From assembly GCA_963709585.1 (NCBI GenBank), contig CAVPXI010000015.1, positions 32,001 through 96,000 on the forward strand: DNA of 64,000 nt. Reading direction: 5' to 3'. How positions within the stretch are numbered: the stretch's first letter is position 1; every line of letters begins with the position of its first letter. The notes below the pieces were generated by a model. The model saw nothing but the letters and a program-made list of their open reading frames with translations, had not been told where the DNA came from and did not search any database. Origin of the DNA: Candidatus Dormiibacterota bacterium (GTDB lineage Bacteria > Chloroflexota > Dormibacteria > Aeolococcales > Aeolococcaceae). Made by a program: the position numbers and the translations under genes. Shown one piece after another: positions 1-14,318 of this stretch.

Positions 1-1128
1 CACGCGAATCGCCCGCGCCTCGGGGCCGAGCACGATCTCCTGTGCGAGCTCGCTTCGCTCGGCGCCGTCGCCGCTCGCAAGGGTCGCGAGTGCGCTCGCG
101 ACCTCTATAGGCGTTGGATCGCGCCGCAGCACGTCGTCGTAGAGCCGTATGACGAAGCCGAGCGGTCTGGAGCCGGCATCCGCGTAGTACTCCTTGGAGG
201 CGAGCAGGTCGATCTGGATGGATGTGCCGTCTGCACCCGCAGCAAGCTGCGATGTGTAGGCGGCGAGTTCCCCTTGGGTGGGACGGCGTCCGTAGCCGCC
301 CGAGCATGCAGCCCCTCCCTCGGGTGGCCCACCGCCCAACTCAGTCGGGCCTGGGCCGACGATGAACGGAGGTGGGGTCGGCAGTGGTGGCGGCGCAGGC
401 GGTGGGATCGATCCCTTGGACGAGGATGAAGACGAGGTGGGGTGATTCGACGTTCCCGTTGCAGTTGGGCCCGACGTCGCGGGAGGGCCAGGGGAACCCG
501 TGCCTGTCGGTGTGGAAGCTGGGCTGCCAGTAGTCGTCGGCGTCGGATTCGGCGTGAAGGTTGGGGTTGGGGTCGGCGTTGGCGTTGGCGTTGGTGTGGG
601 CGTGGGCGTCGATGTGGGCGTCGGCGTCGGTGTGGGCGTGGGCGTCGGTGTGGGCGTCGGTGTGGGCGTCGGTGTGGGCGTAGGCGTCGGGGTCGGCGTG
701 GGTATCGACGTGACGGTGAACCCGCCGCCATCGGTTGCCGAGCTTCCCGTGACCGGACAGATCGCCGTGGTGTCATCGCAAAGCACAGCAGTCACGCTGA
801 TCGGACCCGGGTTCGCATCAGTCGGGACGATGCCGGAGACGATGCCCGAGCAACTGGTCGGAACGGCGGCCCCAGGGGGCATGGTCGTGGCGCCCGGATC
901 GACCCAGGTGGCGTCAATCTCGAGTGCGTCGGTGCTCGCGACCCCGCAGTCCGGTTGATCCCAGGTGTAGTCGTAGATGACCGCGGTGCCAGGAGGTCCC
1001 GAGCTCGCGCTGGCACCGTCGAGCGAGAGATTCGGTGACGTCTGCGCCGCCACCGCCCTCGCGGTTGCCGTCGGCACCACGAGTGCGCAGACCACGACCA
1101 AGATCGCGAGGCCCGCCCCCTTGCGCAT
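1..1128 (-). CDS. Secreted Pro-Thr-linker surface protein with DUF4214-like C-terminal region (3'-partial, runs off the window)
   Basis: Absent from the ORF track because no stop falls in the window. Manual translation from ATG 1128: signal peptide [18 protein letters not shown], Cys-containing N-domain, long (PT)n tract, then ...LLASKEYY...[16 protein letters not shown]..., which resembles DUF4214/S-layer-associated helices. Confidence 0.75.
530..702 (-). repeat. Pro-Thr coding 6-bp microsatellite
   Basis: ggcgtc/ggtgtg/ggcgtt hexamer array, read as (PT)n on the minus strand. Confidence 0.9.
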
Positions 1129-1242
1129 GCGCCGAGTCTAATCGACGGCGCGGGGTCAGCTGGACGCGACCGAAGGGCCGTAGGGTGACTTCATCACTGA
1201 CGATCTGGGGCAGTTGAGCTCGCTCGTCCTCCCAGTGGCGAC

Positions 1243-1464
1243 CCCAATCGCGACGATCCCACCTAGTCTGACCGGCCGGCTATCGGCGCCAAGCCGATTT
1301 GAACTCTAATGCACGAGGTCTTCTGCCCAAAAACTAAAAAGTTCATGACAAAGGCGTGGTGATTTCGCTTCCAACGAAAGCCCTTGCACAGCAAGGCACA
1401 TTGCCTGATTCTAGGTTGATGGTCGGGGCGACTGGATTCGAACCAGCGACCCCCTGCTCCCAAA
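1243..1464. repeat. Diverged ~220-bp direct repeat, copy 2 (copy 1 at 8480-8702)
   Basis: Manual alignment: about 30 differences over 178 bp of flank, followed by the 45-bp tRNA core. Confidence 0.92.
1420..1464 (-). repeat. att-type copy of the tRNA-Pro 3' half (anticodon loop to CCA)
   Basis: 44/45 identity to 8658-8702. The single mismatch (1437) is at variable T-loop position 59. Confidence 0.95.
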
Positions 1465-1571
1465 ATAACAGGGGCAATGTGGATCTCAACTAGGCGATAT
1501 CGACCATTTTGCAAGGGATTTCGCGAGTGGGGTAAAGGGGCCCTGATCGTCCCCGTCCGCGTTCATCTGAG

Positions 1572-2133
1572 CTAGGAGAGCGCGAGCATCGCCGCCGCGA
1601 CCTCACCGGCGTCCGCATCGCGGATCGCCGTCGCGGCCCGTTCGAGCACCAGCAGCCGCGCGCCGGAGATCTCGCGTGCGAGCGCTTCGCCATTGCCGAC
1701 CGGGAAGAACGGGTCGCGGCGACCGTGCACCACCAATGCCGGGATCGCGAGTTCGGACAGCCGCTCGCGCCAGCGCGGGTTGCAGTCGAGCTTGGCGAAC
1801 ACCATGCCCAGCTGGTTGGCCATCTGCACCGCCGACGCCGATGCCCGCCAGGTGCGCCGGCAGGCCGTCGAGTTCGCGGGCGAGCGCTGCGGCATCGGCT
1901 GCAAGATCGCGCAACGTGTACGCGGGAGCCTCCGGATCGATCGTGGTTGACGCACCGGAATCGCGCAGGTCGTACCGTACGACGTGGCGCCCGCCGCGCG
2001 CGATCGCCTCGCAGAGCGCGTCGGGCCAGGACATCATTGTCGTGCCGCCCGCGAGCAGAACGAGCGGTGCCTCAGCATCACCGAAGAACTCGACCCCGAG
2101 CGTGACTCCGTCAGTCTTGACGGTCGTCATCAA
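1572..2133 (-). pseudogene. Alpha/beta hydrolase with out-of-frame internal deletion
   Basis: N-half (HVVRYDLRDSG...AHLAGIGVGG) in ORF 1603-2133. C-terminus (PALVVHGRRDPFFP...ARLLVLE) in ORF 1572-1955. The cap region appears missing at the junction near 1825. Confidence 0.8.
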
Positions 2134-2290
2134 GATTCCGCCGTCGAAATGACGCGGCCGGACGTGCGAAATGAGTGGATCATCGGGTACATGGTGAACC
2201 TCCAGTGGCGCAGGGACGGCGGCACAAGCTACGCGTCCCCGTCGGTCGTATAGGTCGCATCGAACGTCCGCGGCTGAGCTTGACTCTCAG

Positions 2291-2378
2291 AGATGGACGA
2301 CTGGCGGGGCAAAAACTTATCGAACCCCAGACCGCAACGGAACCATGAGCGGGCATTCGTCGACTGCCTCTGGGCGCG
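2291..2378 (+). promoter_or_regulatory. Candidate ZMP/ZTP (pfl)-like riboswitch
   Basis: GACTGGCG at 2299-2306 and GTCGACTGCC(TC)TGGGCG at 2359-2376, upstream of a folate gene. The middle part is atypical. Confidence 0.35.
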
Positions 2379-2407
2379 ATCGCCGCTGCCTGCGCGAAGA
2401 TCCGTCG

Positions 2408-3244
2408 ATGCCACACCGGGCGCTGACCTCAGCCGAGATCTCCTTACCCATGCACCCCGACACTGCACGTGTCACAGAGCGGATCGCACAGCTGGCGCGG
2501 GACGTCGAACTGGTCGTGCTCACCGACAATCACGCTGGGCAGCCCCGGATGTCGCCACTTGCGGCGGTGGCCCTGGCGAGAGAGCAGGGCGTCCGGACCG
2601 TGGTCCATATCTCGGCGCGGGATCGCAACCGACTAGCGCTCCAGAGCGAGGTGATTGGCGCTGCCGCCCTCGGCTGCGACGGAATCGTCTGCCTCCACGG
2701 CGACGACGTTCCCGGGATTGCCCGGGTCGGCGACATGACCGGGACGCAGCTGCTCGCTGCTGCCGGGGAATGGCTGGCCCCGCTGCCAATCGTACGGGGC
2801 TGCGTATTGAACCCGTTTGCCACCGACCCCGACAGAGAGCTGCGGCTGCTCCGACGCAAGCTTGAGTGCGGTGCAACCTTCGCTCATACCCAGATGTGTT
2901 TCAGCATCCCCGCTCTGATCGGGTTCTTGGATCGCGCTGGCGAGGCGGGGCTGCTGAAGCAATTGCGCGTTTACGTGACCGTAGGAGTCCTGCGGAGTCG
3001 CGCCATGGCTGATCGTGCCCGCTCCCTGCCTGGCTGCGACCTGCCTGACTCGGCCTATGCCCAGGTGTGCGCCGGGGGAGGACGCGAGTTGGCCCTTGAG
3101 ATGGCACAGCGCCTAGCCGATCTTCCGGTGGTGGACGCGCTTCATGTCATGCCCTTGGGCGACGAGCCCACCGCCGCCCAAGTGGCAGCCACCTTCCGCC
3201 GTGCCCGGCAGGTCGTCCCGAGGCATGGGGTCGCGGGCCCTTGA
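2408..3244 (+). CDS. metF: Methylenetetrahydrofolate reductase family protein
   Basis: Motifs AEISLP, VVLTDN, HISARDRNRLALQS, LHGDD, RKLECGATFAHTQ. Start uncertain (2345 or 2408). Confidence 0.85.
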   Translation: MPHRALTSAEISLPMHPDTARVTERIAQLARDVELVVLTDNHAGQPRMSPLAAVALAREQGVRTVVHISARDRNRLALQSEVIGAAALGCDGIVCLHGDDVPGIARVGDMTGTQLLAAAGEWLAPLPIVRGCVLNPFATDPDRELRLLRRKLECGATFAHTQMCFSIPALIGFLDRAGEAGLLKQLRVYVTVGVLRSRAMADRARSLPGCDLPDSAYAQVCAGGGRELALEMAQRLADLPVVDALHVMPLGDEPTAAQVAATFRRARQVVPRHGVAGP

Positions 3245-3479
3245 CTGGCCCCCATGCAAGCGAAGGGTCGACCCTCCGCTCAACGATCCGTGGCCGCACG
3301 TCCGCGCCCGATGAGCCGCCAGTGCCTGGACCGCGACCGGGGATGGGGACGTCCTTTAGGGACAGTCCGTTAGACGCTTAACACGGACTTTTTTGACCCG
3401 CCTAGCAGCCGCTGGCTCTCCGACACGACCCGCCCGAAACGCCTTTTGTGTCAACGATAATCCGGCGCTAGCTGGTCGA

Positions 3480-3524
3480 TGGTCGGGGCGACTGGACTCG
3501 AACCAGCGACCCCCTGCTCCCAAA
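3480..3524 (-). repeat. att-type copy of the tRNA-Pro 3' half
   Basis: 45/45 identity to 8658-8702. Identity ends at the first base of the anticodon loop. Confidence 0.95.
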
Positions 3525-3737
3525 CTACCGAAGGCTATTTCGATCTCCAGGGGGCGTCGAGGCAATTTTGCGAGCGAATTTGCCCTTCGCATGTTGACGG
3601 CTGAAATATGTTTGGGCCTAATGCAGGTCCCGCGCAGTGCGTCAGCCGCGGTCACTGAGCTTCCCCTCCCCGTCTGAGAACAGGACGCTCGGGTGACCGA
3701 GGGTGATGCCCTTCGGTGCGTGCTGGATATCTTCCCG

Positions 3738-4142
3738 TCATCGGACTATCGTTCGCCCAGGCGCCCGGGCATCTGGAGCGGCGATCTCCGAGCTGTTGCT
3801 CGCAGTGGGTACGACCATGGTTAGAAAGCAAATCAAGCGCGTCCGTTGAGTGCTGCCATTGCTGGCAATCGGCGTGGTGCTCGCCGATACGGAGGGGACG
3901 GTGACCGCCTCCACGCCCCCACGATTTGTGGTGAGTCCGCTCGTACGGCGATGCTTCCTGCCGCTGCGACGACGGACGGTCCCACTGTCGGGTAGTCGAA
4001 GAGCCACTGCCCGGCTCGCTCGCGGCGTGCAGCGCGCATTCAGGAGCGTCGACGCGGAGGGCTGGGAGCTACTCTGCCCTTGCGCCGTAAGTCGAAGCCC
4101 ATACCAGGAGACGACGACGATGATGATCACCACCGCGACCAC
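3738..4142 (-). CDS. Small hypothetical membrane-anchored protein (possibly degraded)
   Basis: Hydrophobic N-terminus VAVVIIIVVVSWYG. The remainder is not recognised. Confidence 0.3.
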   Translation of the reverse strand: MVAVVIIIVVVSWYGLRLTAQGQSSSQPSASTLLNARCTPRASRAVALRLPDSGTVRRRSGRKHRRTSGLTTNRGGVEAVTVPSVSASTTPIASNGSTQRTRLICFLTMVVPTASNSSEIAAPDARAPGRTIVR

Positions 4143-4393
4143 GTAGACAGCGACTTCCTTGACGCCGAACTCTCTTCTTTTCGATTCTCATGGCCCCCAT
4201 AGCCCGCCGTGAGCACCTCGGACCCCGGCCCAAACTCACCTACTTACCGCCGGCGGAAGAGGCGCTTGTTACCGGAGCCGCGACGGCGTATCTTTCAACA
4301 CCCCGGATCTGTGGTGATCTCTGACCAGAGGATCAGCTGAGTCAGCCACCGCGGTGACCGGAGAGCATCGGAACCCTGGGGAGGGTCTGAGCA

Positions 4394-7300
4394 ATGGGAA
4401 GGCGCTACCGCCGCCGGCACCTGGGCGGACGATGGACGGCCATTTTCCTCAGCGGTCTGCTGTGCTTCGTTGTGGCGGGTAGCCTGCCCGCTCAAGGGGC
4501 CGGTTCCGGAGTCAGCGTGACATCGTTCGGTGCTGCATCCGGCCCGGCGCTCTCGGTCTCGTCGTTTGGGGCGGCCAACAGCACGCTGAGCCTGACCCAG
4601 CAAGCAATCCCGATCACGGCCACCGCCACCGGCGATCTGCTCGTCGCGACCATCCGCACCCGCACCACCAGCGGCGCGCCGGCCACGGTCAGCACCGTCA
4701 CCGATTCGGCGAACAACAAGTGGCTCCCGGCGGTGCAGTTCCCCTCGGGCAGCCAGAATGATGAGGAGATCTGGTATGCGCCAGGGGCGGCTGGCCTCAG
4801 CACTTCGGGAGCCGTCACCGTCACGGTGAGCGCCAGCGCTGCGATCGCCGTCACCGTGCTGGACGTCGCCGGCACCTCCTCGGCGTCGCTCGACGTGATC
4901 GCCCACAACTCGGGGAGCAGCACCGGCGCTTCGACGGGAACCACGCCAACAACCGCGACCGCATACGAGCTCGCGGTTGCCGACATCGGCTGGAGCGCCG
5001 CGGTCACCACGAGTTCGCCGACCGCCGGATACGCCCCGACCGCCCTGGAGCAGTCCTCGGTGAGCGGCGACAAGGCAGGGGAGCAAGCGGCTTGGCAGGA
5101 GCTCGCCACCACCGGGACGGAGAGCTATGCGGTCACCCTGAGCGGTTCCTACGCCTGGACGGGAGCGATCGCGATCTTTGAGATCGGAGCGTCGGGCACC
5201 CCGAGCCCCACACCGAGCCCGACCCCGACGGCCACCCCGACCCCAAGCCCATCGACGACACCCAGCCCCACCCCCTCAGCGACGCCTCCGCACATCATGG
5301 TGATCGTGGAGGAGAACCAGGAGTACGGCAGCATCATCGGCAACACCAACGGCGCTCCGTACATCAACGGCCTGGCGAGCACCAACACCGTGGCCACCAA
5401 CTGGTACGGGGTCGAGCACAACAGTCCCACCGACTACATGGACCTTATCTCGGGGTCCGACCAGGGATACGCCGGGACGACGAAGAAGAGCCCGCCCTTT
5501 TCCGGCACGACCCTGGTGGACGAGCTGGATGCCGCCAGGATTCCCTGGCAGGCATACATGGAGACAATGCCCTCCGCCTGCTACACGGGAAATCCCACCT
5601 CGACCGGGCTCTACGTGCCCAAGCACAACCCCTTCCACTTTTTCAGCAATTACAAGAACTGGTGCGGAAACCTCACCGTCCAGGGAGTCGTGCCCTACCC
5701 TGGCGCCAGCTCGCTGGTCAGCGCTCTAGATAGCAGCAACCCACCCGACTTCACCTGGATCACGCCCAACGAGTGCGATGACATGGAGGGCGACACGGTG
5801 AGCGGCAGCCCGTGCGGAGGCGAAAGTACCGCGCAACTGATCACGGCTGGCGATACCTGGCTGAAGAATAACCTCGGGCCCATCCTCAGCTCCACATGGT
5901 TCCAGGACAACGGCGTCGTGATCCTCACCTGGGACGAGGGCACGAGCAGCGCCGGGTTGGCGGGGGCCAGCCCGCCAGATGACGGCGGCTGCACTGCGCC
6001 CCACGTGCCCGAGTGCGGAGGCCACATCGCCACCCTGGTGATCGCCTCCAAGTCCGCCGGGAGCTTCAGCGCCGGCGGAGACCACTTTGGGGCCCTGCGC
6101 GGAATCGAGGAAGCCTACGGGGTCGGCCTGCTGGGGCACTCGGGCGGCACGAACGATGGCGATCTAGAGCCCGCCTTCGGCCTGCAAACGCCGACGCCGA
6201 CCCCGAGCCCGACGCCAACGCCGACGCCAACGCCAACGCCGACCCCCACTCCTACGCCCACGCCGACGCCGACACCAACGCCAACGCCAACGCCAACGCC
6301 AACGCCTACCCCCACGCCAACCCCGACACCGACGCCGACGCCCACCCCGACGCCGACGCCCACCCCCACGCCAACCCCGACACCGACGCCGACGCCCACC
6401 CCGACGCCGACGCCCACCCCCACGCCAACCCCGACACCGACGCCGACGCCCACCCCCACGCCAACCCCGACACCGACGCCGAGCCCAACACCCACTCCCG
6501 GGTCCTCGGGCTCCTTCGGTGCAGGGGGCAGCGCGCTGGCGGCGACGCTATCGGCCAACGCCGGCATTCCCACCCATGGTGGCGACCTCCTGGTGGTCAC
6601 CATCAAGCTGCGCAACACCACCGCCTCACCGAGCGTGAGCAGCGTCTCCAACTCCACCAGCGGTCAGAACGTGTGGCAGCGAGCGTTGTCCGTCAAGAGC
6701 GGGACCCAGGCTGAGGAGGAGATCTGGTATGCCTCCAACACCCAGAGCGTCACCAGCGTCACTGTCACCGCGACTGCGAGCTCGGCGATCGCCTTTACCG
6801 TGCTCGACGTCAACGGCGTGTCGTCGCCCGATGCCACGGCGACGGGTTTCGGGAGCGGGACGGCGGCATCGACCGGGACGGCCCTCGCCACCGCGGCTCC
6901 GGAGGTGACGGTAGCCGCCATCGGCTGGAATGCCGGCGTCACGCCTAGTGGTCAGTCCCCCGGATACACTCTGACCGTTCCTGAGCAGTCGACGGCGAGC
7001 GGAAGCGCTACCGGCGAGCAGGCCGCGTACGAGGTGCTGACCGCCACCGGCCCACAGTCATATGCCGCGACCCTCAGCGGGTCGGTGGTGTGGACGGCAG
7101 GCCTGGTCACCTTCAAGGGAACCATCACCGCCCCGCCAACGCCAACGCCGACTCCGACGACCACCCCGACGTCCACCCCAACGCCCACGTCGTCACCATC
7201 GCCGACGCCCACGCCTGGCACCACGCCCATCAAGCACATCGTCGTTTTCTACCAAGAGAATCACAGCTTCGACAACGTGCTCGGCGCTCTCTGCGCCGCC

Positions 7301-8503
7301 AACACCCGGGCGACGCCTTGCGACGGAGCGACCAGCGGGCTGCTGCCGAACGGTACGGTTCAGCCGCTGGGCCAGGCAGCGGATGTGATCCCCGACGTCG
7401 ATCACAGCGTGGCCGGGCAGACGACCGCGATGGATGGCGGGAAGATGGATGGGTTCGCCAACATCGGCGGCTGCGGGGCGCCCAGCTACGCCTGCTACAC
7501 CGAGTTCGAGCCGAGCCAGATCCCGAACCTCGCCGCCTTGGCGACCACGTTCACGGTCTCCGACAGGACCTTCGAGTTTGGTGCGGTGCCCAGCTGGGGA
7601 GGTCACCTCACCCTGGTGGCGCAGACCCTTGACGGTTTCCTCGGCGACAATCCCTTCTACAACACCGCCGCGTCCCCCCCGCCTCAGGGGAATGGATGGG
7701 GGTGCGATTCCAACAACGACGAGTACTGGTCCGCGCCCGGGTCCTCCACCCTGGTCCCGGAACCAGCCTGCATCCCCGATCCCTCGCTCAACCCCATCCA
7801 GTACCCCTATGGCGGCGCCTACCGCTCAACCCCCGTGCAGCACGTGGACACGATCATGGACCGCCTCGACGCCGCTGGGCTGAGCTGGAAGCTGTACACG
7901 AGCCAGGGCGGCGTCTACACCTGGTCGATCTGCCCATCGTTTGCGGACTGCCTGGACACCAGCCAGGCCGCCAACATGGTGCCCCCCAGCCAGTTCATCA
8001 CCGACGCCCAGGCGGGGACCCTGCCCAGCTTTTCCGTCCTCCTTCCTCAGGGCGACTCCGGGTCAACCTCGCAGCACAACGGCACATCGATGTTGGAGGG
8101 CGACAACTGGATCGGCTCAGCGGTGAGCGCTGTGGAGAATGGTCCCGACTGGGCATCGACGGTGATCTTCATCACCTACGACGACTGCGGCTGCTTCTAC
8201 GATCACGTGGCGCCCCCACCCGGCCTGGGGATTCGGGTGCCGATGGTAATCGTCAGCCCCTACGCCAAGCCCGGCTACACCAACTCGAACATCGCCTCCT
8301 ACGCCTCCTTGCTCGCCTACACCGAGCACACCCTGGGGCTCGCGCCCCTGGGTGCCAACGATGCCGGCGCCTACGACTTCAGCAACGCGTTCGACTATCA
8401 GCAGACGCCGCTCAGCGGTGCGGCGATGATCCAGCGGCCCATCCCTCCGCAGGAGCAGGCGTACTTGGCCGCCCATCCGCCCAATCCCGACGATCCGACC
8501 TAG
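4394..8503 (+). CDS. Secreted 1369-aa tandem phosphoesterase (acid phosphatase-like plus phospholipase C-like domains) with Pro-Thr linkers
   Basis: Signal peptide. [26 protein letters not shown] mark domain 1. [43 protein letters not shown] mark domain 2. Two homologous Ser/Thr-rich beta modules (GDLLV...EEIWYA...GEQAA). Confidence 0.9.
6188..6500 (+). repeat. (Pro-Thr) x ~50 linker with higher-order 36/54-bp units
   Basis: Hexamer array. The block acgcccacccccacgccaaccccgacaccgacgccg recurs four times near-identically from about 6302. Confidence 0.92.
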
Positions 8504-8702
8504 TCTGATCGGCCGGCTGTCGGCGCCAAGCCGATTTGAACACTTTTGCACGAGGTTTTTTGCCCCAAAAACTAAAAAGGTCACCACAAATGCGTGGTGG
8601 TTTCGTGTCCAACAAAAGTCCTTGCACACCAAGGACTTGTTCATGATTTCGGGTTGATGGTCGGGGCGACTGGACTCGAACCAGCGACCCCCTGCTCCCA
8701 AA
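8480..8702. repeat. Diverged ~220-bp direct repeat, copy 1
   Basis: Homologous to 1243-1464. Includes the last 7 codons and stop of the phosphoesterase, the AT-rich trailer and the tRNA 3' half. Confidence 0.92.
8612..8638 (-). terminator. Probable intrinsic terminator downstream of tRNA-Pro
   Basis: Perfect 9-bp stem AAGTCCTTG/CAAGGACTT (8616-8638) running into TTTTGTT on the minus strand. Confidence 0.6.
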
Positions 8703-8732
8703 GCAGGTGCGCTACCACTGCGCCACGCCCCG
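8658..8732 (-). tRNA. tRNA-Pro(TGG)
   Basis: CGGGGCG acceptor stem, TGGTAG D-loop, CCTGC-TTTGGGA-GCAGG anticodon arm, TTCGAGT T-loop, encoded CCA, 75 nt. Confidence 0.98.
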
Positions 8733-8932
8733 ACGCTTTCTGGTCTCAGTTACCGCATCTGCTTGGGTGATTGTGCGGTGGTGTCGCACTTTTCTCATGC
8801 GGCCGATGTGGCCAAAACCAGGCTCGAAAGGTAGCACGGGCTAGGGAGTTGTCTCCGAGAGAGAGGATCGTTCGACGCATTTGGCGCGGCTGTAACCGTG
8901 GATGACATGTTCCCGTTGACCGGGTAGCCGCC

Positions 8933-9874
8933 ATGAAACTCACAGCCATCGTCAGCTCTGCGATCGCCGCCGTTGGCCTCGCAGCTTGTGGATCGACCGC
9001 AGTTACGCCGCCTTCTGCGCGACCAACGCTCTCGTTAGCAGCCGCTCCGACAGTAGCGTCGACACCCACCGGGTCGCCCAGCCCGACCGCAAGCCCGAGC
9101 GAGTCGCCCAGCCCGTGCGTTGTGACTACTGAAGGCCCGCCTGGGACTGGTAGTTGCGAGACGCCGCCTGTGGTCACCGTGACCGCTTGCGACAGCGGCT
9201 ACGGCTTTGCAGCGGGCGGTGGCGAAATCTCGTGGAGTGGCGCTGATGCCGCTGACGAGTTCACTATCTTCCAGGCTGTCAACGGCAACATCACCATATA
9301 CCCCGGAGCAGCAGACCCCAGCAACCCCACACCTGCATCTGGCTCGTATGGACCGCTACCGGCTGGCTACTACACGTACCAGTTCTCAGACAACACGAAC
9401 GAGTTCGGTGGGCCATTCAGCGGCTCGTTTACGATCCTCAACTGCCCGGTGGTGCCAACACCAACACCAACACCGAGCGCAAGCCCGAGCGCGTCGCCCA
9501 GCCCGACCGCCTGCGTTCCCAACCCCGAGCGGGGCTACACCGGTAGCTGCGAAACGCCGCCTGTGGTCACTGTGACTGCGTGTGACAGTGGTGGCTACGG
9601 CTCAGCGAGTGGCGGCGCAATCTCATGGAGTGGCGCAGACGCCGCTGATGAGTTCACGCTCTTTCTACCCGATGGCGGTGGCAGCATCCAGTTGTATCCC
9701 GGCATCGTAGACCCCGGCAACCCCACTCCTGCATCCGGCTCGTACGGCCCATTGACGGCAGGCGCGTACACCTACCAGTTCGTAGACAACACGGACGAGA
9801 TCTTCAACGGCTCGTTCACGATACTCACGTGCGACGTGCCCTACGCCTCCACCGACACCTTCCCTCACGCGTAA
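8933..9874 (+). CDS. Lipoprotein with two tandem ~120-aa Cys-containing repeats
   Basis: Lipobox GLAAC. The block GSCETPPVVTVTACDSG...SWSGADAADEFT...PTPASGSYGPL.AG.YTYQF.DNT.E...GSFTIL.C occurs twice. Confidence 0.8.
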   Translation: MKLTAIVSSAIAAVGLAACGSTAVTPPSARPTLSLAAAPTVASTPTGSPSPTASPSESPSPCVVTTEGPPGTGSCETPPVVTVTACDSGYGFAAGGGEISWSGADAADEFTIFQAVNGNITIYPGAADPSNPTPASGSYGPLPAGYYTYQFSDNTNEFGGPFSGSFTILNCPVVPTPTPTPSASPSASPSPTACVPNPERGYTGSCETPPVVTVTACDSGGYGSASGGAISWSGADAADEFTLFLPDGGGSIQLYPGIVDPGNPTPASGSYGPLTAGAYTYQFVDNTDEIFNGSFTILTCDVPYASTDTFPHA

Positions 9875-10016
9875 GCGCTCACCCCGACGCCAACTCTTAC
9901 AGTGCGTCGCCTGCTTCACCTCTGATCGTAAGTCGAGTAGATCGGGAGCATCAAGGCGTACTGGGTGTTGGTGAGCGCGACGGCAGCAGTATCGACGTCA
10001 GGTCTACGCTGCGTGC

Positions 10017-10400
10017 ATGAGTACCGCTGCCAGCCAGGGGCAAAGAGGGCTCGATCTCTTTCTTCGGCCGACCGCGTTCTGGCTCTGGTGTCTCCCGGGC
10101 TGCGCCGCGATTGCCGCGGCTGTTCTTGAGGGAAATCACCGACTCTCGCTGACGGCGACCGGGATCATCTGGATGCTCGCGACCCTGTGGATCGGTGTCG
10201 GTTGCGCGTGGAACGCACTGCGCTGCGGCCGCATCCACTGCATCATCCACGGCACGATGTTGCCCCTACTTGCGCTCGTTGGCATTCTCCACGTCATGGG
10301 CGTCCTAGCCATCAGTTGGAACATCTACTGGGCGGCGTTTGGGGCCATCCTCATCGCGGGATTCATCCCCGAAATCCTGGGAAAACGGCACTACATCTAG
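10017..10400 (+). CDS. Small 4-TM membrane protein with RCGRIHC motif
   Basis: Four hydrophobic segments. TACGCT -10-like hexamer 6 nt before the ATG. Confidence 0.7.
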   Translation: MSTAASQGQRGLDLFLRPTAFWLWCLPGCAAIAAAVLEGNHRLSLTATGIIWMLATLWIGVGCAWNALRCGRIHCIIHGTMLPLLALVGILHVMGVLAISWNIYWAAFGAILIAGFIPEILGKRHYI

Positions 10401-10905
10401 GACTGTGGCGCCGCAGGCGTCTTCGGTAGCGACAATCCGCGGTGGCAGGCCCATGCGCCGCCGATCACCTCGCCCTCGGTGGTGAGCAGTGCCGCAATCC
10501 GGCCGCGCCCGTCCGTGTAGTGCTCCGGATAGGTCGTCCCGTCCTCAGCGCGACACGGCCACAGGCTCCAGTCGCCCTCCCGCGGGGCATGGATCGACGG
10601 CGCCACCTTCACCCACTCGGCGGCGGATGCGCCCTGGTCCGGGAGGTGGTCATCGAAGCCGAGCGCGGGCGATGAAGAGCCGTTCCCAGGCGCCGGCCTC
10701 GATGGCCTCGAGCCGGGCGTCCTCATCAGCGGTGAGGTCGTGCCTGTGCTGGCCCGTAGAACGCGTGGTGAGCGCGTCGTCCACTGCCCGCGCAGCCTCG
10801 AGATAGCGTTTGCAGGCGGCGACGGCCAGATGCAGCTGCGATCGCGCTCGGCCGTCGGGCGGCCATTCGGTACGTCGCTGGTAGGCTCGGCCGGATGGGG
10901 AACGG

Positions 10906-11258
10906 TGACTGAGCGAGCGATCCCTCCAACGACGCGCGAGCGCGCGGCGTTCGATGCCGCAACCACCGGGGGACCTCGGGATTTCGTTCGGGTGTGCCAG
11001 GAGCTCGGCAGGGAGCCGGAGCAGATGCTCGACGAATTCGAGGCAGCGCCGTGGCGCTGGTTGACGTATTTCTCGCCGGGAGACCCGGTCACTGACGAAG
11101 TGCGGCATCGGCCAATCCAACCTGCGATGCAGGCACGCCTCGACGCCGTTCGCGAGTACATCGAGGCCCCCTGGTGGCGCCGCGTCTTCGGCCACCGCGA
11201 GGCATTCCAGGAGGTGACGGGACGGTCCTATACGAGGACACGTCTGCCAGGCCGGTGA
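10906..11258 (+). CDS. Hypothetical protein
   Basis: 3' part of ORF 10740-11258 has protein-like composition. GTG start is inferred. Confidence 0.45.
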
Positions 11259-11338
11259 GCCGCCCTCGAGAGCGGAATTCGCTCCCGGCTAACTCGGTCG
11301 CGACCCGGCGACGGCCGCCCATCGCAAACTCTTCGCCC

Positions 11339-12517
11339 GTGGACCTCCTCGACGTCGTCATCGCCGTCTTCCTGATCGTTTTCGCGGTGTCCGGCCTGCG
11401 TCGCGGACTGAGCGGCGTCGCCCTGGCACTCGCGGGGCTCCTCGCCGGCCTCTTCCTCGGGGCCGTGATCGCCCCGCCGATCGCGAGAGCGATCACCGCG
11501 GACCGGTCCACACAGCCGCTCTTCGCGATCGGCATCTTCATCGGCGTCACGTTGCTCATCGAGGGGATCGGCGCCGGAATCGGCTTTCGCGTCCGCCAGC
11601 GGACCGAGCACACCGCTCTGCTGGGCAAGGCCAACTCCGCGGCGGGCGCCGTGCTCGGCGTGGTGTCCGCGCTCGCGGCCGCCTGGTATCTCGGGCTCAT
11701 CTTCTCGCCGAGCTCCTGGGTCAGCCTGGACAAGCAGATCAGCAACTCGGCCATCGAGCGATCGCTCGACCGCTTCATGCCGCGGCCCCCAGGGTTCCTC
11801 GCGACCATCGGCAACCTGTTCGTGCCTGGCGACTTCCCGAACCCCTTCTCCACGATCCTGAACACATCGCCCGCGCCGGTAGCGATCCCGCGACTGGTCG
11901 ACACGACAGGCATCCGCCAGGCGGTCGGCGCGACGTCGAAGGTCATCGCCTCGGGGTGTGGTGGCGGGGCCGAGGCCGGGTCATCCTGGCCGCTCGGCGC
12001 CGGGTACTTCGCGACCAACGCCCATGTCGTCGCCGGCTCGAACGGCGTGGTGATCGACACGCCGAACAACGGCCAGCACACCGCCCGGGTCGTGCTCTTC
12101 GACCCGAACACCGACCTCGCTGTCCTCTACTCCCCGGGACTGGCGCTCCGCCCGCTCGTGCTCGTCGACAGCGACCCGGTGCGTGGCACGGGCGGCGCGG
12201 TCATCGGCTACCCGGGCGGCGGTTCAGAGCAGGTCGTCCCCGCCGCTGTCAGCGGCACCGAATCGGCACGCGGCTACAACATCTACGGCGACACGCTCGT
12301 GACCCGCGACATCGAAGTGCTGGCCGCGCAGGTCATCCCGGGCAACTCGGGCGGCCCGATCGTCAACGACAGCGGTCAGGTCATCGGCGTGGTGTTCGCG
12401 GCGAGCACCACCGAGCCGAACGTCGGCTACGCCCTGACGATTCCCCAGGTCTTCCCGGACCTTCAGGCCGGAGAGCACCGGACGGCGGCAGTCTCCACCG
12501 AGGCGTGCGCCGGCTGA
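11339..12517 (+). CDS. marP: MarP-family serine protease (CvpA membrane domain plus trypsin-like domain)
   Basis: N-terminal TM helices (LLDVVI...SGLRRG), TNAHVV, DLAVL, PGNSGGP catalytic motifs. Confidence 0.9.
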   Translation: MDLLDVVIAVFLIVFAVSGLRRGLSGVALALAGLLAGLFLGAVIAPPIARAITADRSTQPLFAIGIFIGVTLLIEGIGAGIGFRVRQRTEHTALLGKANSAAGAVLGVVSALAAAWYLGLIFSPSSWVSLDKQISNSAIERSLDRFMPRPPGFLATIGNLFVPGDFPNPFSTILNTSPAPVAIPRLVDTTGIRQAVGATSKVIASGCGGGAEAGSSWPLGAGYFATNAHVVAGSNGVVIDTPNNGQHTARVVLFDPNTDLAVLYSPGLALRPLVLVDSDPVRGTGGAVIGYPGGGSEQVVPAAVSGTESARGYNIYGDTLVTRDIEVLAAQVIPGNSGGPIVNDSGQVIGVVFAASTTEPNVGYALTIPQVFPDLQAGEHRTAAVSTEACAG

Positions 12518-12539
12518 GCGAACCCCGCTCAGCCGGCGC
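12507..12539. terminator. Hairpin between convergent genes
   Basis: Perfect 14-bp stem GCGCCGGCTGAGCG/CGCTCAGCCGGCGC. Confidence 0.7.
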
Positions 12540-12558
12540 CCTGCGGCCTATCCCGGGA

Positions 12559-13539
12559 TCAGCTCGAGAGGAACCCGTTCTGCACGAGCCAGGCGTGCGC
12601 GACGGCGGTCACGGTCTGGCCCTGAACCTCGACCATGGCGTTGAGTGAGAGCATCACCGGGGTGGTCCACTTGGCCGCCACCGGGGCCATCCAGGCACCG
12701 ATCGACGGGTGCTGCTGGAGCACGCTCGAGCGGACCACGAGCCCCGCGTTGTCGGGCGGGAACAGGTTCTTGTCGTCGGTCAGCGTCACCTCGTTGTTCA
12801 CCTGGATTGCAAAGTCGGTGGTGAACACCTCGCCCGCATCGCACTGGCCTTTCGCGATTGCCTTCTCAGCAGTGGTGCCGATCTGGGTGTAATGGAAGCT
12901 GGCGGGCGAGGGCCAGCCATACGTGCTCACGAGCCCCGGCAGACCATCAGGGCGGGTGAGGAATTCGGAGAGGACGCAGACCTTGGTGCTCGCATGCGAG
13001 GTCAGGTACGAGCCGAACGCCGCGAGCGAGGTCCCGAAGGTGGACGTCTGACTCGACTTGATTGCGATGCCGTTTGTGTCGTCGAACTGTGTCGGCGCGA
13101 CCCAGCACAGCTGCTTCGCCTCGTCGAGCGCTTTCACCTTGGCGAAGGCCCCGGGGAGGTCCGTCGGGAACTGTCCTGCGGTCAGGTTGAGGTAACCCGG
13201 GTCCGTCAACTCCGTACCCGTGTACTGCCAGTACATATCGATGATTCCGCTGGACAGCGCCTTTCCGAGCGCCGGATCGGCTGCGCTGAATGTGTTCGTG
13301 ATGGTGAAGCCATGTGCACCGAGCACGTCGGCAGTCATCTGGGCCATCAACTGCTCTTCCGCAAATGACTTGCTGCCAATCGATAGCGTGGCACCACCGC
13401 CACTCGCCTGAGAACCCGTCGGGCACGTCGACGCCGCCGCAGTGCCGGACGGCGGGTTGCTACCGGAGTTGCCTCCCCCGCACGCAGCAAGGGTCCCGGG
13501 TATCGCGATTGCGATGACCGCGAGTAGCTTGCGCTTCAT
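12559..13539 (-). CDS. Glycine betaine/osmoprotectant ABC substrate-binding lipoprotein
   Basis: Lipobox LAAC, IGSKSFAEEQL, YWQYTGT, LTDDKNLFPP. Confidence 0.92.
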   Translation of the reverse strand: MKRKLLAVIAIAIPGTLAACGGGNSGSNPPSGTAAASTCPTGSQASGGGATLSIGSKSFAEEQLMAQMTADVLGAHGFTITNTFSAADPALGKALSSGIIDMYWQYTGTELTDPGYLNLTAGQFPTDLPGAFAKVKALDEAKQLCWVAPTQFDDTNGIAIKSSQTSTFGTSLAAFGSYLTSHASTKVCVLSEFLTRPDGLPGLVSTYGWPSPASFHYTQIGTTAEKAIAKGQCDAGEVFTTDFAIQVNNEVTLTDDKNLFPPDNAGLVVRSSVLQQHPSIGAWMAPVAAKWTTPVMLSLNAMVEVQGQTVTAVAHAWLVQNGFLSS

Positions 13540-13577
13540 GGATGTGTTCCTCCACATGTTCCAACTGCTGACATGTC

Positions 13578-14318
13578 TTAACCGTTGACCTGTTTTGGGA
13601 CGGCGATGCGCTCAATCATTGAGAGCCCCCAGTCGGCGAGCAAGGCGAGTGAAGCCACCATCACGGCACCGACGAAAACCACCTGATCACTGTTGTTGAT
13701 ACCAGCGGCGATCACGTCCCCGAGGCCGCCTCCACCGATGAAGTTTCCGAGTGTAGCGGTTCCAATGATCAGGACGAGTGCAGTGCGCAGCCCCGCAAAG
13801 ACCAGTGGTGAGGCAAGCGGCAACTGCACTCGCACCAAAGCCTGCCAACGCGTCATTCCCATTCCGCGTGCGGCGTCGACCGTGGCAGGGTCGACACTTT
13901 GAATGCCGGCAACCGTGTTGCGCAGGACAGGGAGCAACCCGTACACCACCAGCGCGATGACGGTGGGGGTGACCCCGAGGCCGAGAAAGGCGAACAGCAG
14001 CACCAGGAGTCCGATCCCGGGGATAGCCTGCCCGAGATTCGCTAGCACGAACACCGGCACTCGGACAGCCCTCCCCGCCTGGGCGATCAGCGCCCCGATG
14101 GGCACGCCGATCGCGGCGACCAGCGCGAAGGAGACGCCCGACACGAAGACATGCTGGATGGTCTCGCTCATCAGGTTGGGCGCGTTGAGCACTTCGGAGT
14201 CGAACCGCCTGCCGACCAGCGTCTGATAGACACCGACCGAGACGAGGATGCCGATCGCGACCCAGATCGGAACGGCGAACGGGCGCAGGCGGTGCATCCA
14301 GCGCGGCAGGGTTGGCAT
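13578..14318 (-). CDS. Osmoprotectant ABC permease
   Basis: LPVLRNT, DAARGMGMT (EAA loop), GGGGLG. Confidence 0.92.
   Translation of the reverse strand: MPTLPRWMHRLRPFAVPIWVAIGILVSVGVYQTLVGRRFDSEVLNAPNLMSETIQHVFVSGVSFALVAAIGVPIGALIAQAGRAVRVPVFVLANLGQAIPGIGLLVLLFAFLGLGVTPTVIALVVYGLLPVLRNTVAGIQSVDPATVDAARGMGMTRWQALVRVQLPLASPLVFAGLRTALVLIIGTATLGNFIGGGGLGDVIAAGINNSDQVVFVGAVMVASLALLADWGLSMIERIAVPKQVNG

Follow-up and report, generated by a model that had tools for sequence, protein, structure and literature searches.

How did the 3' half of a single proline tRNA gene come to be repeated in tandem along a bacterial chromosome, and how was the DNA between the copies acquired? This question is raised by a 64,000-nucleotide stretch (the window) from the metagenome-assembled genome of Candidatus Dormiibacterota, an uncultured soil bacterium (GenBank assembly GCA_963709585.1, here G000). 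The window comprises positions 32001-96000 of a 247-kb contig (C15; CAVPXI010000015.1) in an assembly of 24 contigs. Within it, an intact tRNA-Pro(TGG) gene is followed by two displaced copies of its 3' portion, which delimit unit 2 (3525-8657) and unit 1 (1465-3479). A preliminary description of this DNA took the units for integrase-less cassettes that form an integron-like array. The evidence considered here, which comes largely from relatives in the same genus, makes it probable that the locus is instead a tandem array that was built by site-specific integration at tRNA-Pro(TGG) and then decayed to remnants resembling cis-mobilizable elements (CIMEs).

Half-tRNAs and the units between them

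ARAGORN identifies a single intact tRNA-Pro(TGG), which scores 68.8 bits with Rfam; an Rfam search of positions 1-10000 gave no match besides this tRNA. Repeat-family searches and alignment reveal that the 3' 45 nt of the gene recur twice on the same strand, giving three cores with start-to-start spacings of 5178 and 2060 (Table 1). The stretch of identity opens, in both copies, with the first nucleotide of the anticodon loop (TTTGGGA), continues through the CCA, and extends into TC(A/G)ACC. The sole mismatch of the outermost copy, at window position 1437, lies in the T loop at position 59 of the tRNA, as counted from the 3' end. The spacings, the single mismatch, and the start and extent of identity given in the preliminary description were all reproduced. 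It had also proposed a search for more copies of the core. When the whole genome was searched with up to 3 mismatches, exactly these three sites were found, all on one strand of C15, and a reversed control gave 0; with up to 11 mismatches, no additional decayed core was detected in C15:12001-41000.

An intact tRNA gene together with displaced 3' fragments in the same orientation is the signature of a genomic island, and the identity block of the attachment (att) sites starts in the anticodon loop both in the two copies and in the displaced halves of relatives. Judged from where identity starts, strand exchange would have taken place in the anticodon loop. The idea, put forward in the preliminary description, that tyrosine-integrase elements with a junction at the anticodon loop left the half-tRNAs behind as scars of site-specific recombination is supported. 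Another origin was considered for the copy at 3480-3524, namely that it is the rest of a second tRNA gene; this was rejected, since it is preceded by an element-type arm and not by a tRNA 5' half.

Unit 1 has the ends of an integrase-bearing element. Ends at this locus were sorted by sequence into families A and B and a C type, and family B is defined by relative G009, in which the tRNA gene, a 125-nt arm, and the integrase gene are present on one contig, and the distal arm, half-tRNA, and native flank on another. Homology of the proximal (P') arm of unit 1 to G009 ends ~20 nt ahead of the G009 integrase ATG. Unit 1 also has a B-type distal (P) arm, whose spacer in G000 is 30 nt. Thus, both cores and both arms (89-93% identical to those of the integrase-bearing G009 element) are retained, as are attL and attR in a CIME. 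By Pfam, the unit encodes an MTHFR-like protein on the plus strand and a broken alpha/beta-hydrolase on the minus strand. A segment of relative G016 is 97% identical to unit 1 in three pieces of 321, 375, and 1151 nt, whereas the flanking genes are 75-84% identical. In the G016 segment, which lacks the distal arm and the terminal half, the hydrolase is intact and a RibD_C gene is located between the hydrolase and MTHFR genes. Relative to G016, RibD_C has been deleted from unit 1, and of the 280-residue hydrolase only residues 1-107 and 182-272 are left, in different frames.

Unit 2 also retains both cores. Its degenerate distal (P) arm extends from 3525 to ~3585, and in this arm the conserved motif AAAATGGTCGATATCG is mutated. 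The C-type sequence adjoining the tRNA is ambiguous, since it could be either the P' arm of an element or a tRNA trailer: it carries hairpins and runs of T, as a trailer would, and in 4/6 metagenome contigs it comes after a distal arm and half-tRNA with no integrase detected nearby, whereas in G016 and G062 it is found inside the element, ahead of the integrase gene. Terminator-like hairpins after the tRNA and copy 1 number 4, compared to 4.0 +/- 2.4 in shuffled sequences, and are therefore not above chance. The leftmost core is itself within a 222-bp repeat (1243-1464 versus 8480-8702, ~87% identity) that was missed in the preliminary description. This repeat spans the trailer, the intergenic stretch, and the final 24 nt and stop codon of the phosphoesterase gene that unit 2 carries. 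The segment 1243-1419 may be a native trailer with a native phosphoesterase stump, or it may be the stump of a third unit. In GC content, the units (0.63-0.68) are no different from the window (0.67).

As the preliminary description had stated, neither unit contains a recombinase, replication, or transfer gene. None was detected by Pfam among the main open reading frames (ORFs), nor by Pfam and PHROGs among all 48 stop-to-stop frames of at least 45 residues in 1130-4420 and in the 1369-residue ORF. The recombinase that the description suggested might be located elsewhere on the contig was not found: the tyrosine recombinase family PF00589 has 13 matches in G000, 11 of them above the cut-off, and 0 on the 247 kb of C15. 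In the G000 assembly as a whole, whose 88.8% completeness limits this negative result, as does the exclusion of 8,000 bases (C23:56001-64000) from the search, nothing matches the G016 integrase at E <= 1e-40, and the best tblastn alignments have 25-31% identity. Two adjacent integrase fragments are present at C23:66178-66680 of G000, 2 kb from the excluded bases.

Table 1. Positions in the window of the tRNA-Pro cores, unit ends, cargo genes, and flank
Feature	Position	Strand	Remarks
Gene for secreted Pro/Thr-rich DUF4214 protein, flank	1-1128	-	89% in G033, 77.5% in G003
Second C-type trailer, intergenic stretch, last 24 nt and stop of phosphoesterase gene	1243-1419	-	Possible third-unit stump or native flank
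Half-tRNA copy 1	1420-1464	-	44/45; mismatch at tRNA position 59; repeat search and alignment
B-type distal (P) arm of unit 1	1465-1542	-	Conserved motif AAAATGGTCGATATCG; 93% to G009
Broken alpha/beta-hydrolase gene	1572-2133	-	Two frames
MTHFR-like gene (PF02219), unit 1 cargo	2345-3244	+	Inverted relative to its position in G019, G012, G010, G009, G017
B-type proximal (P') arm of unit 1	3355-3479	-	89% to tRNA-integrase gap of G009
Half-tRNA copy 2, boundary of unit 2 and unit 1	3480-3524	-	45/45; repeat search and alignment
Distal non-coding part of unit 2	3525-4393		0.87 kb without family match
Unit 2 cargo: 1369-aa secreted protein, two phosphoesterase (PF04185) domains, long Pro/Thr linkers	4394-8503	+	95% identical in G033
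C-type sequence directly after tRNA, with hairpins	8589-8657	-	86% to G016; precedes integrase gene in G016 and G062
Intact tRNA-Pro(TGG)	8658-8732	-	3' 45 nt (8658-8702) is the regenerated core, equivalent of attL

The tRNA-Pro locus in relatives

The core was surveyed in 36 genomes of the same genus, 5 further members of the genus (41 relatives in all), and 24 genomes of the sister family. It is present in 24/36 and 3/5 of the genus genomes (27/41 relatives) and in 0/24 of the sister family. A single copy is found in 19 of the larger genus set and 2 of the smaller one. The six multi-copy relatives have either two copies (G009, G014, G027, and G062) or three (G016 and G033), and G031 contains an additional decayed core with 4 mismatches. 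Synteny is kept on the side of the tRNA that faces 8733-14000 in all 16 of the other genomes compared, with 73-84% identity (97.5% for G033); the 3' side of the tRNA is different in nearly every genome.

The ends of the tRNA genes themselves provide evidence about how elements enter this site. In six single-copy genomes, the gene ends in CAT or CTT, not CCA, and the displaced halves of G014, G027, and G031 end in CTT or CAT likewise. Because the displaced halves match the intact tRNA of these single-copy genomes, insertion was precise. This pattern is the one predicted for precise integration by an element that brings its own CCA-bearing half. The tRNA-Pro genes of apparently unoccupied sites (G006, G004, G010, G012, G023, and G024) lack an encoded CCA, and those of island-bearing genomes encode it; integration would thus change how the 3' end of this tRNA is made.

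An integrase gene directly follows the tRNA in G016, G014, and G009. Identity is 75% between the integrases of G009 and G016, and 32% between these and that of G014. Counts of integrases and arm motifs were taken over 42 genus genomes, 14 of which contain a match to the G016 integrase at E <= 1e-40. Matches of at least 75% identity occur in 3/42 genomes (G016, G062, and G009); all three adjoin tRNA-Pro(TGG), and they constitute the tyrosine-integrase clade here termed Int-BC. Another 15 matches have 44-51% identity, and of these 5 adjoin tRNA-Thr(GGT), 6 adjoin tRNA-Gly(GCC), and for the remaining 4 no tRNA was found in the stretch examined. The G014-type integrase is present in 1/42 genomes and its arm motif in 8/42. 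The scan for the B/C distal arm used a 16-nt motif alone and yielded 7 sites in 6/42 genomes, one of which (in G023) is off that genome's tRNA-Pro contig. A 44-51% paralogue is also observed on the tRNA-Pro contig of seven genomes, 58-75 kb from tRNA-Pro, and in five of the seven it is beside tRNA-Gly (L080-L091).

Family A is characterized by the proximal arm CGTCAATCTGACC...GAATACGAGCTGAATTCACGCGGCGT together with a corresponding distal arm. In G014, these bound a 5.9-kb element that encodes a 369-residue integrase, an HTH_3 protein, and a WapI-like protein. Units with both arms and without an integrase are present in G027 (5.2 kb), in G033 (2.5 kb, carrying an ECF sigma factor and a cupredoxin), and in G016 (0.95 kb). 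Relative to the G014 element, G027 is missing ~1.4 kb, with which the HTH gene and the greater part of the integrase gene are gone, and both of its arms are kept; this gap indicates that G027 lost its integrase by deletion. The G033 unit is 97.9% identical over 2560 nt to sequence in G003, whose backbone is 79-80.5% identical. The G016 unit (L047 6572-7604), in which one RibD_C-like gene lies between family A arms and two half-tRNAs, is the most cassette-like unit observed.

In G016, a 319-residue integrase is encoded after the tRNA and a C-type sequence that is 86% identical to the window's 8589-8657, and the layout in G062 is the same. The G016 island is 88 kb in length; besides the integrase it carries polysaccharide-synthesis clusters and encodes a NikA-like protein, a sortase, and an IS1595 transposase, with a B-like distal arm and a half-tRNA at its end.

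Altogether, 7/11 of the core-bounded units observed in the genus have no integrase (units 1 and 2 of G000, G027, the G033 A unit, the G033 phosphoesterase unit, the 0.95-kb unit of G016, and G031). The other 4 (G014, the 88-kb island of G016, G009, and G062) have one. Two of these, as well as the G033 phosphoesterase unit, are split over contigs. Unit content varies between relatives, as the preliminary description had anticipated: G033, whose flank is 97.5% identical to that of G000, lacks unit 1, contains the extra 2.5-kb A unit, and has the phosphoesterase unit second behind it. On G033 contig C128, the phosphoesterase gene is followed by an unrelated stretch of 347 nt, a half-tRNA whose loop is altered (CTTGAGA), the trailer, and the DUF4214 gene.

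Origin of the array

Serial integration and subsequent decay would account for the locus as follows. An Int-BC element would recombine at the anticodon loop, and in doing so would replace the 3' half of the tRNA with its own copy, including the CCA and a short trailer. The old half would be pushed outward, each integration thus adding one boundary. Unit 1 would then be an element that kept both arms and is without its integrase, and unit 2 one that kept its tRNA-side sequence and a degenerate distal arm. The repeats, the homology of the arms, the target specificity of the Int-BC clade, and the near-identity of units between genomes are direct observations; the order of insertions, the loss of integrase genes by deletion, and any mobilisation are inferred. 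Descent from integrase-bearing elements is consistent with the arms that the units have in common with such relatives and with the deletion seen between G014 and G027. Decay within the window is evident in the broken hydrolase, the RibD_C gene that is gone relative to G016, and the mutated arm motif of unit 2. With att sites kept and integration genes gone, the units fit the definition of a CIME, which also has no transfer genes. Since the assembly yielded no cognate integrase, the units have most likely ceased to be mobile, and renewed movement would require the arrival of an Int-BC element.

Several findings weigh against such a history. The preliminary description held that its cassette reading would fail if relatives carried integrase-bearing islands of which the units were deletion remnants, with fragments of the integrase gene still detectable. 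The first part was found, as islands with the same ends exist in G009, G016, and G062. The second was not: tblastn with the integrases of relatives gave no fragment in the window (best E-value, 0.38), and local DNA alignment beyond the B-type arm for an integrase remnant scored 18, compared to 19.8 +/- 3.2 for shuffled sequences. Loss of the integrase by deletion in place would therefore be deduced rather than seen. Furthermore, as far as the short G009 contigs reveal, the cargo of unit 1 is not common to the integrase-bearing G009 element, and around unit 1, G000 and G033 do not differ simply by a clean core-to-core excision. Two integrase-less structures, unit 1 in G000 and G016 and the sigma-factor unit in G033 and G003, show 97-98% identity in pairs of genomes with a backbone identity of 75-84%. 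Finally, the junction between the trailer and the end of the phosphoesterase gene is present twice in the window.

Pure decay in place does not explain the near-identity of units across diverged genomes or the doubled junction. These two observations suggest that the units spread after the integrase was lost, which on balance is the likelier course. Spread by way of composite islands, by integrases borrowed in trans, or by homologous exchange on the invariant core is possible, and the data cannot separate these routes.

Spread also figures in a broader view of the site, in which tRNA-Pro(TGG) would be a shared docking point for mostly integrase-less, arm-bounded units, the smallest of which is the 0.95-kb single gene of G016. 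Rare integrase elements, whose two clades are present in 3/42 and 1/42 genomes, would insert, excise, and move these units between species, and the outcome would be a tRNA-anchored system of cassette exchange distinct from integrons in both site and enzyme. This view is considered doubtful.

The cassette reading of the preliminary description goes further, as it holds that integrase-less cassettes enter serially and that a few integrases insert and excise them in trans, giving an integron-like exchange. Such a process would fit the preponderance of units without an integrase (7/11), the occurrence of the second family's integrase in 1/42 genomes versus 8/42 for its arm motif, the single-gene unit of G016 with both its arms, the 97-98% identity of integrase-less units across diverged genomes, and the well-kept arms of unit 1. 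It is hard to reconcile with pseudogenised cargo, with the degenerate arm of unit 2, with the cognate integrase that was not found in the G000 assembly, or with G027, where the integrase was lost through deletion. The units in question carry several genes, oriented in both directions, as well as long stretches of non-coding DNA. In addition, a scan of the metagenome collection for a distal arm joined through the core to a B-type proximal arm, the arrangement of a free circle of the unit 1 type or of a B-B tandem, gave 0 matches. The distal arm and core together were found in 6 metagenome contigs, with a C-type trailer after the core in 4/6 and a CTT/CAT type in 2/6; no Int-BC or G014-type integrase was detected in the 4-kb flanks of the 6.

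The likeness to integrons is likewise limited. An integron has a platform with an integrase gene (intI), an attI site, attC sites, and a common cassette promoter, and its cassettes are mostly single promoterless ORFs. Like an integron, the tRNA-Pro locus has imported units lined up at a single fixed insertion point, but the likeness ends there. No tyrosine recombinase is encoded on the 247-kb contig, unit 1 contains two genes on opposite strands, unit 2 contains 0.87 kb of non-coding DNA, and the boundaries are tRNA halves and arms (no dedicated attC model was run). Given that platform integrase, attI, attC, and common promoter are absent, that integrase-bearing islands of relatives have the same ends, and that the cargo is decaying, the integron-like description is not supported, and exchange of cassettes in trans is judged unlikely.

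Integrases could be dispensed with altogether if, after one or a few integrations, the array had been shaped by unequal crossing-over between the 45-51-nt cores and by exchange between relatives anchored on the tRNA and cores. The core is 100% conserved across the genus, the phosphoesterase gene is internally duplicated, and MTHFR and RibD_C show 92-97% identity when compared between genomes in which their context is different. The 222-bp module has been duplicated together with its flank, but its copies are just 87% identical, and so the duplication is not recent. Exchange alone, moreover, does not create element-type arms at the ends of units. As the main source of the array, homologous recombination thus seems very unlikely, and integration followed by decay remains the preferred explanation.

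It is highly improbable that strain variants of tRNA-Pro were joined head to tail through the core during assembly, even though the source is a metagenome-assembled genome and public unitig-style contigs break at cores with none listed that bridges one, since the core of ~51 nt is below ordinary read length, every copy is flanked by unique sequence, the assembly consists of 24 contigs and this one is 247 kb long, and like junctions are present in independent assemblies (G016, contigs C38 and C128 of G033, and metagenome contig L109, with 88% identity over 1349-1537). The public contigs, from four runs, are short and stop at cores; none of those listed bridges a core or shows a joint, circle, or empty site, which says nothing either way.

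Known systems and neighbouring sequences

Stacks of integrase-less, att-bounded units at a tRNA gene are an already known kind of structure, and the window adds one more example. In PMC5704250, CIMEs are described as cis-mobilizable elements in which the att sites are preserved but the genes for integration have been lost, and tandem accretion of ICEs (integrative and conjugative elements) and of IMEs (integrative and mobilizable elements) is reported for ICESt1-related elements of Streptococcus. Like the CIMEs outlined there, the units are stacked at a tRNA 3' end, have kept their att sites, and have integrase-bearing relations in other genomes. Unlike the Streptococcus examples, they are from the phylum Dormiibacterota, and an integrase-bearing partner was not found in the same genome. 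A further difference from ICE partners is that no conjugation module was seen in the integrase-bearing 88-kb island of G016, only the NikA-like protein.

Among islands catalogued by Islander (PMC4383910), 2083/3919 are anticodon-centred, making this the commonest class, and there are 125 tandems of at least 2 islands and 4 of at least 3. The array resembles these islands in having an intact tRNA gene, then displaced 3' fragments in the same orientation, with identity from the anticodon loop. Islander, however, is described there as demanding an integrase gene within each island; units 1 and 2 have none and would escape calling. According to 10.1101/2020.12.28.424599, the tycheposons of Prochlorococcus form arrays in which partial tRNAs separate the elements and decayed remnants occur. 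This comparison is one of architecture only; host and habitat differ, and the units here are mostly integrase-less. A literature search on Dormibacterota and genomic islands returned unrelated papers only.

The analysis maps the principal flexible hotspot in a soil phylum about which little is known, and identifies by name the integrase clade serving that site. Island finders that require an integrase gene would miss such units. Should borrowed integrases indeed move the units, single genes and small operons would be exchanged among uncultured bacteria by way of this site, with phosphoesterases, folate enzymes, and sigma-factor modules as candidate cargo.

Some further features of the cargo were noted. 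A ~1-kb MTHFR-like segment (2381-3245) is inverted between genomes: in G019, G012, G010, G009, and G017 it lies 18-130 nt after a tRNA or half-tRNA and is convergent with RibD_C, while in G000 and G016 it is flipped, downstream of RibD_C in an operon-like arrangement (L051, L061, L059, L105, L104, and L047 compared). The MTHFR-like gene is 93-97% identical across genomes with 74-84% backbone identity. The phosphoesterase gene of unit 2 is an internal tandem duplication in which the N-terminal domain, linker, and PF04185 domain each occur twice. Its repeats at 5186-5300, 6134-6547, and 7109-7240 code for Pro/Thr, and the same repeats terminate contigs of G033. Within the non-coding end of unit 2, 3813-3943 recurs at ~80% identity, as a stretch of ~130-200 nt, at C8:74721-74851 of G000 and C286:31692-31896 of G033.

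On the tRNA side of the array, 8933-9874 contains an ORF of 313 residues that is lipoprotein-like, has no Pfam match, and includes an internal 393-nt tandem duplication (repeat families D12, D16, and D18). On the other side, in C15:12001-32000 (L049), additional genes occupying ~15 kb separate the array from the first shared backbone gene, Y_phosphatase3, which is ~19 kb from the array in G000 versus 3.5-3.9 kb in unoccupied genomes. The additional genes may stem from older islands. They comprise, among others, a LuxR-type regulator, MarR, RibD_C, patatin, and a second ECF sigma/anti-sigma pair, and no half-tRNA lies between them. A 55-nt stretch that ends anti-sigma-like genes recurs at 85-91% identity at C15:27297-27351 of G000 (L049 15297-15351), L046 8516-8570, L054 9623-9677, and L103 2643-2697, and one copy of it adjoins the terminal half-tRNA of G033.

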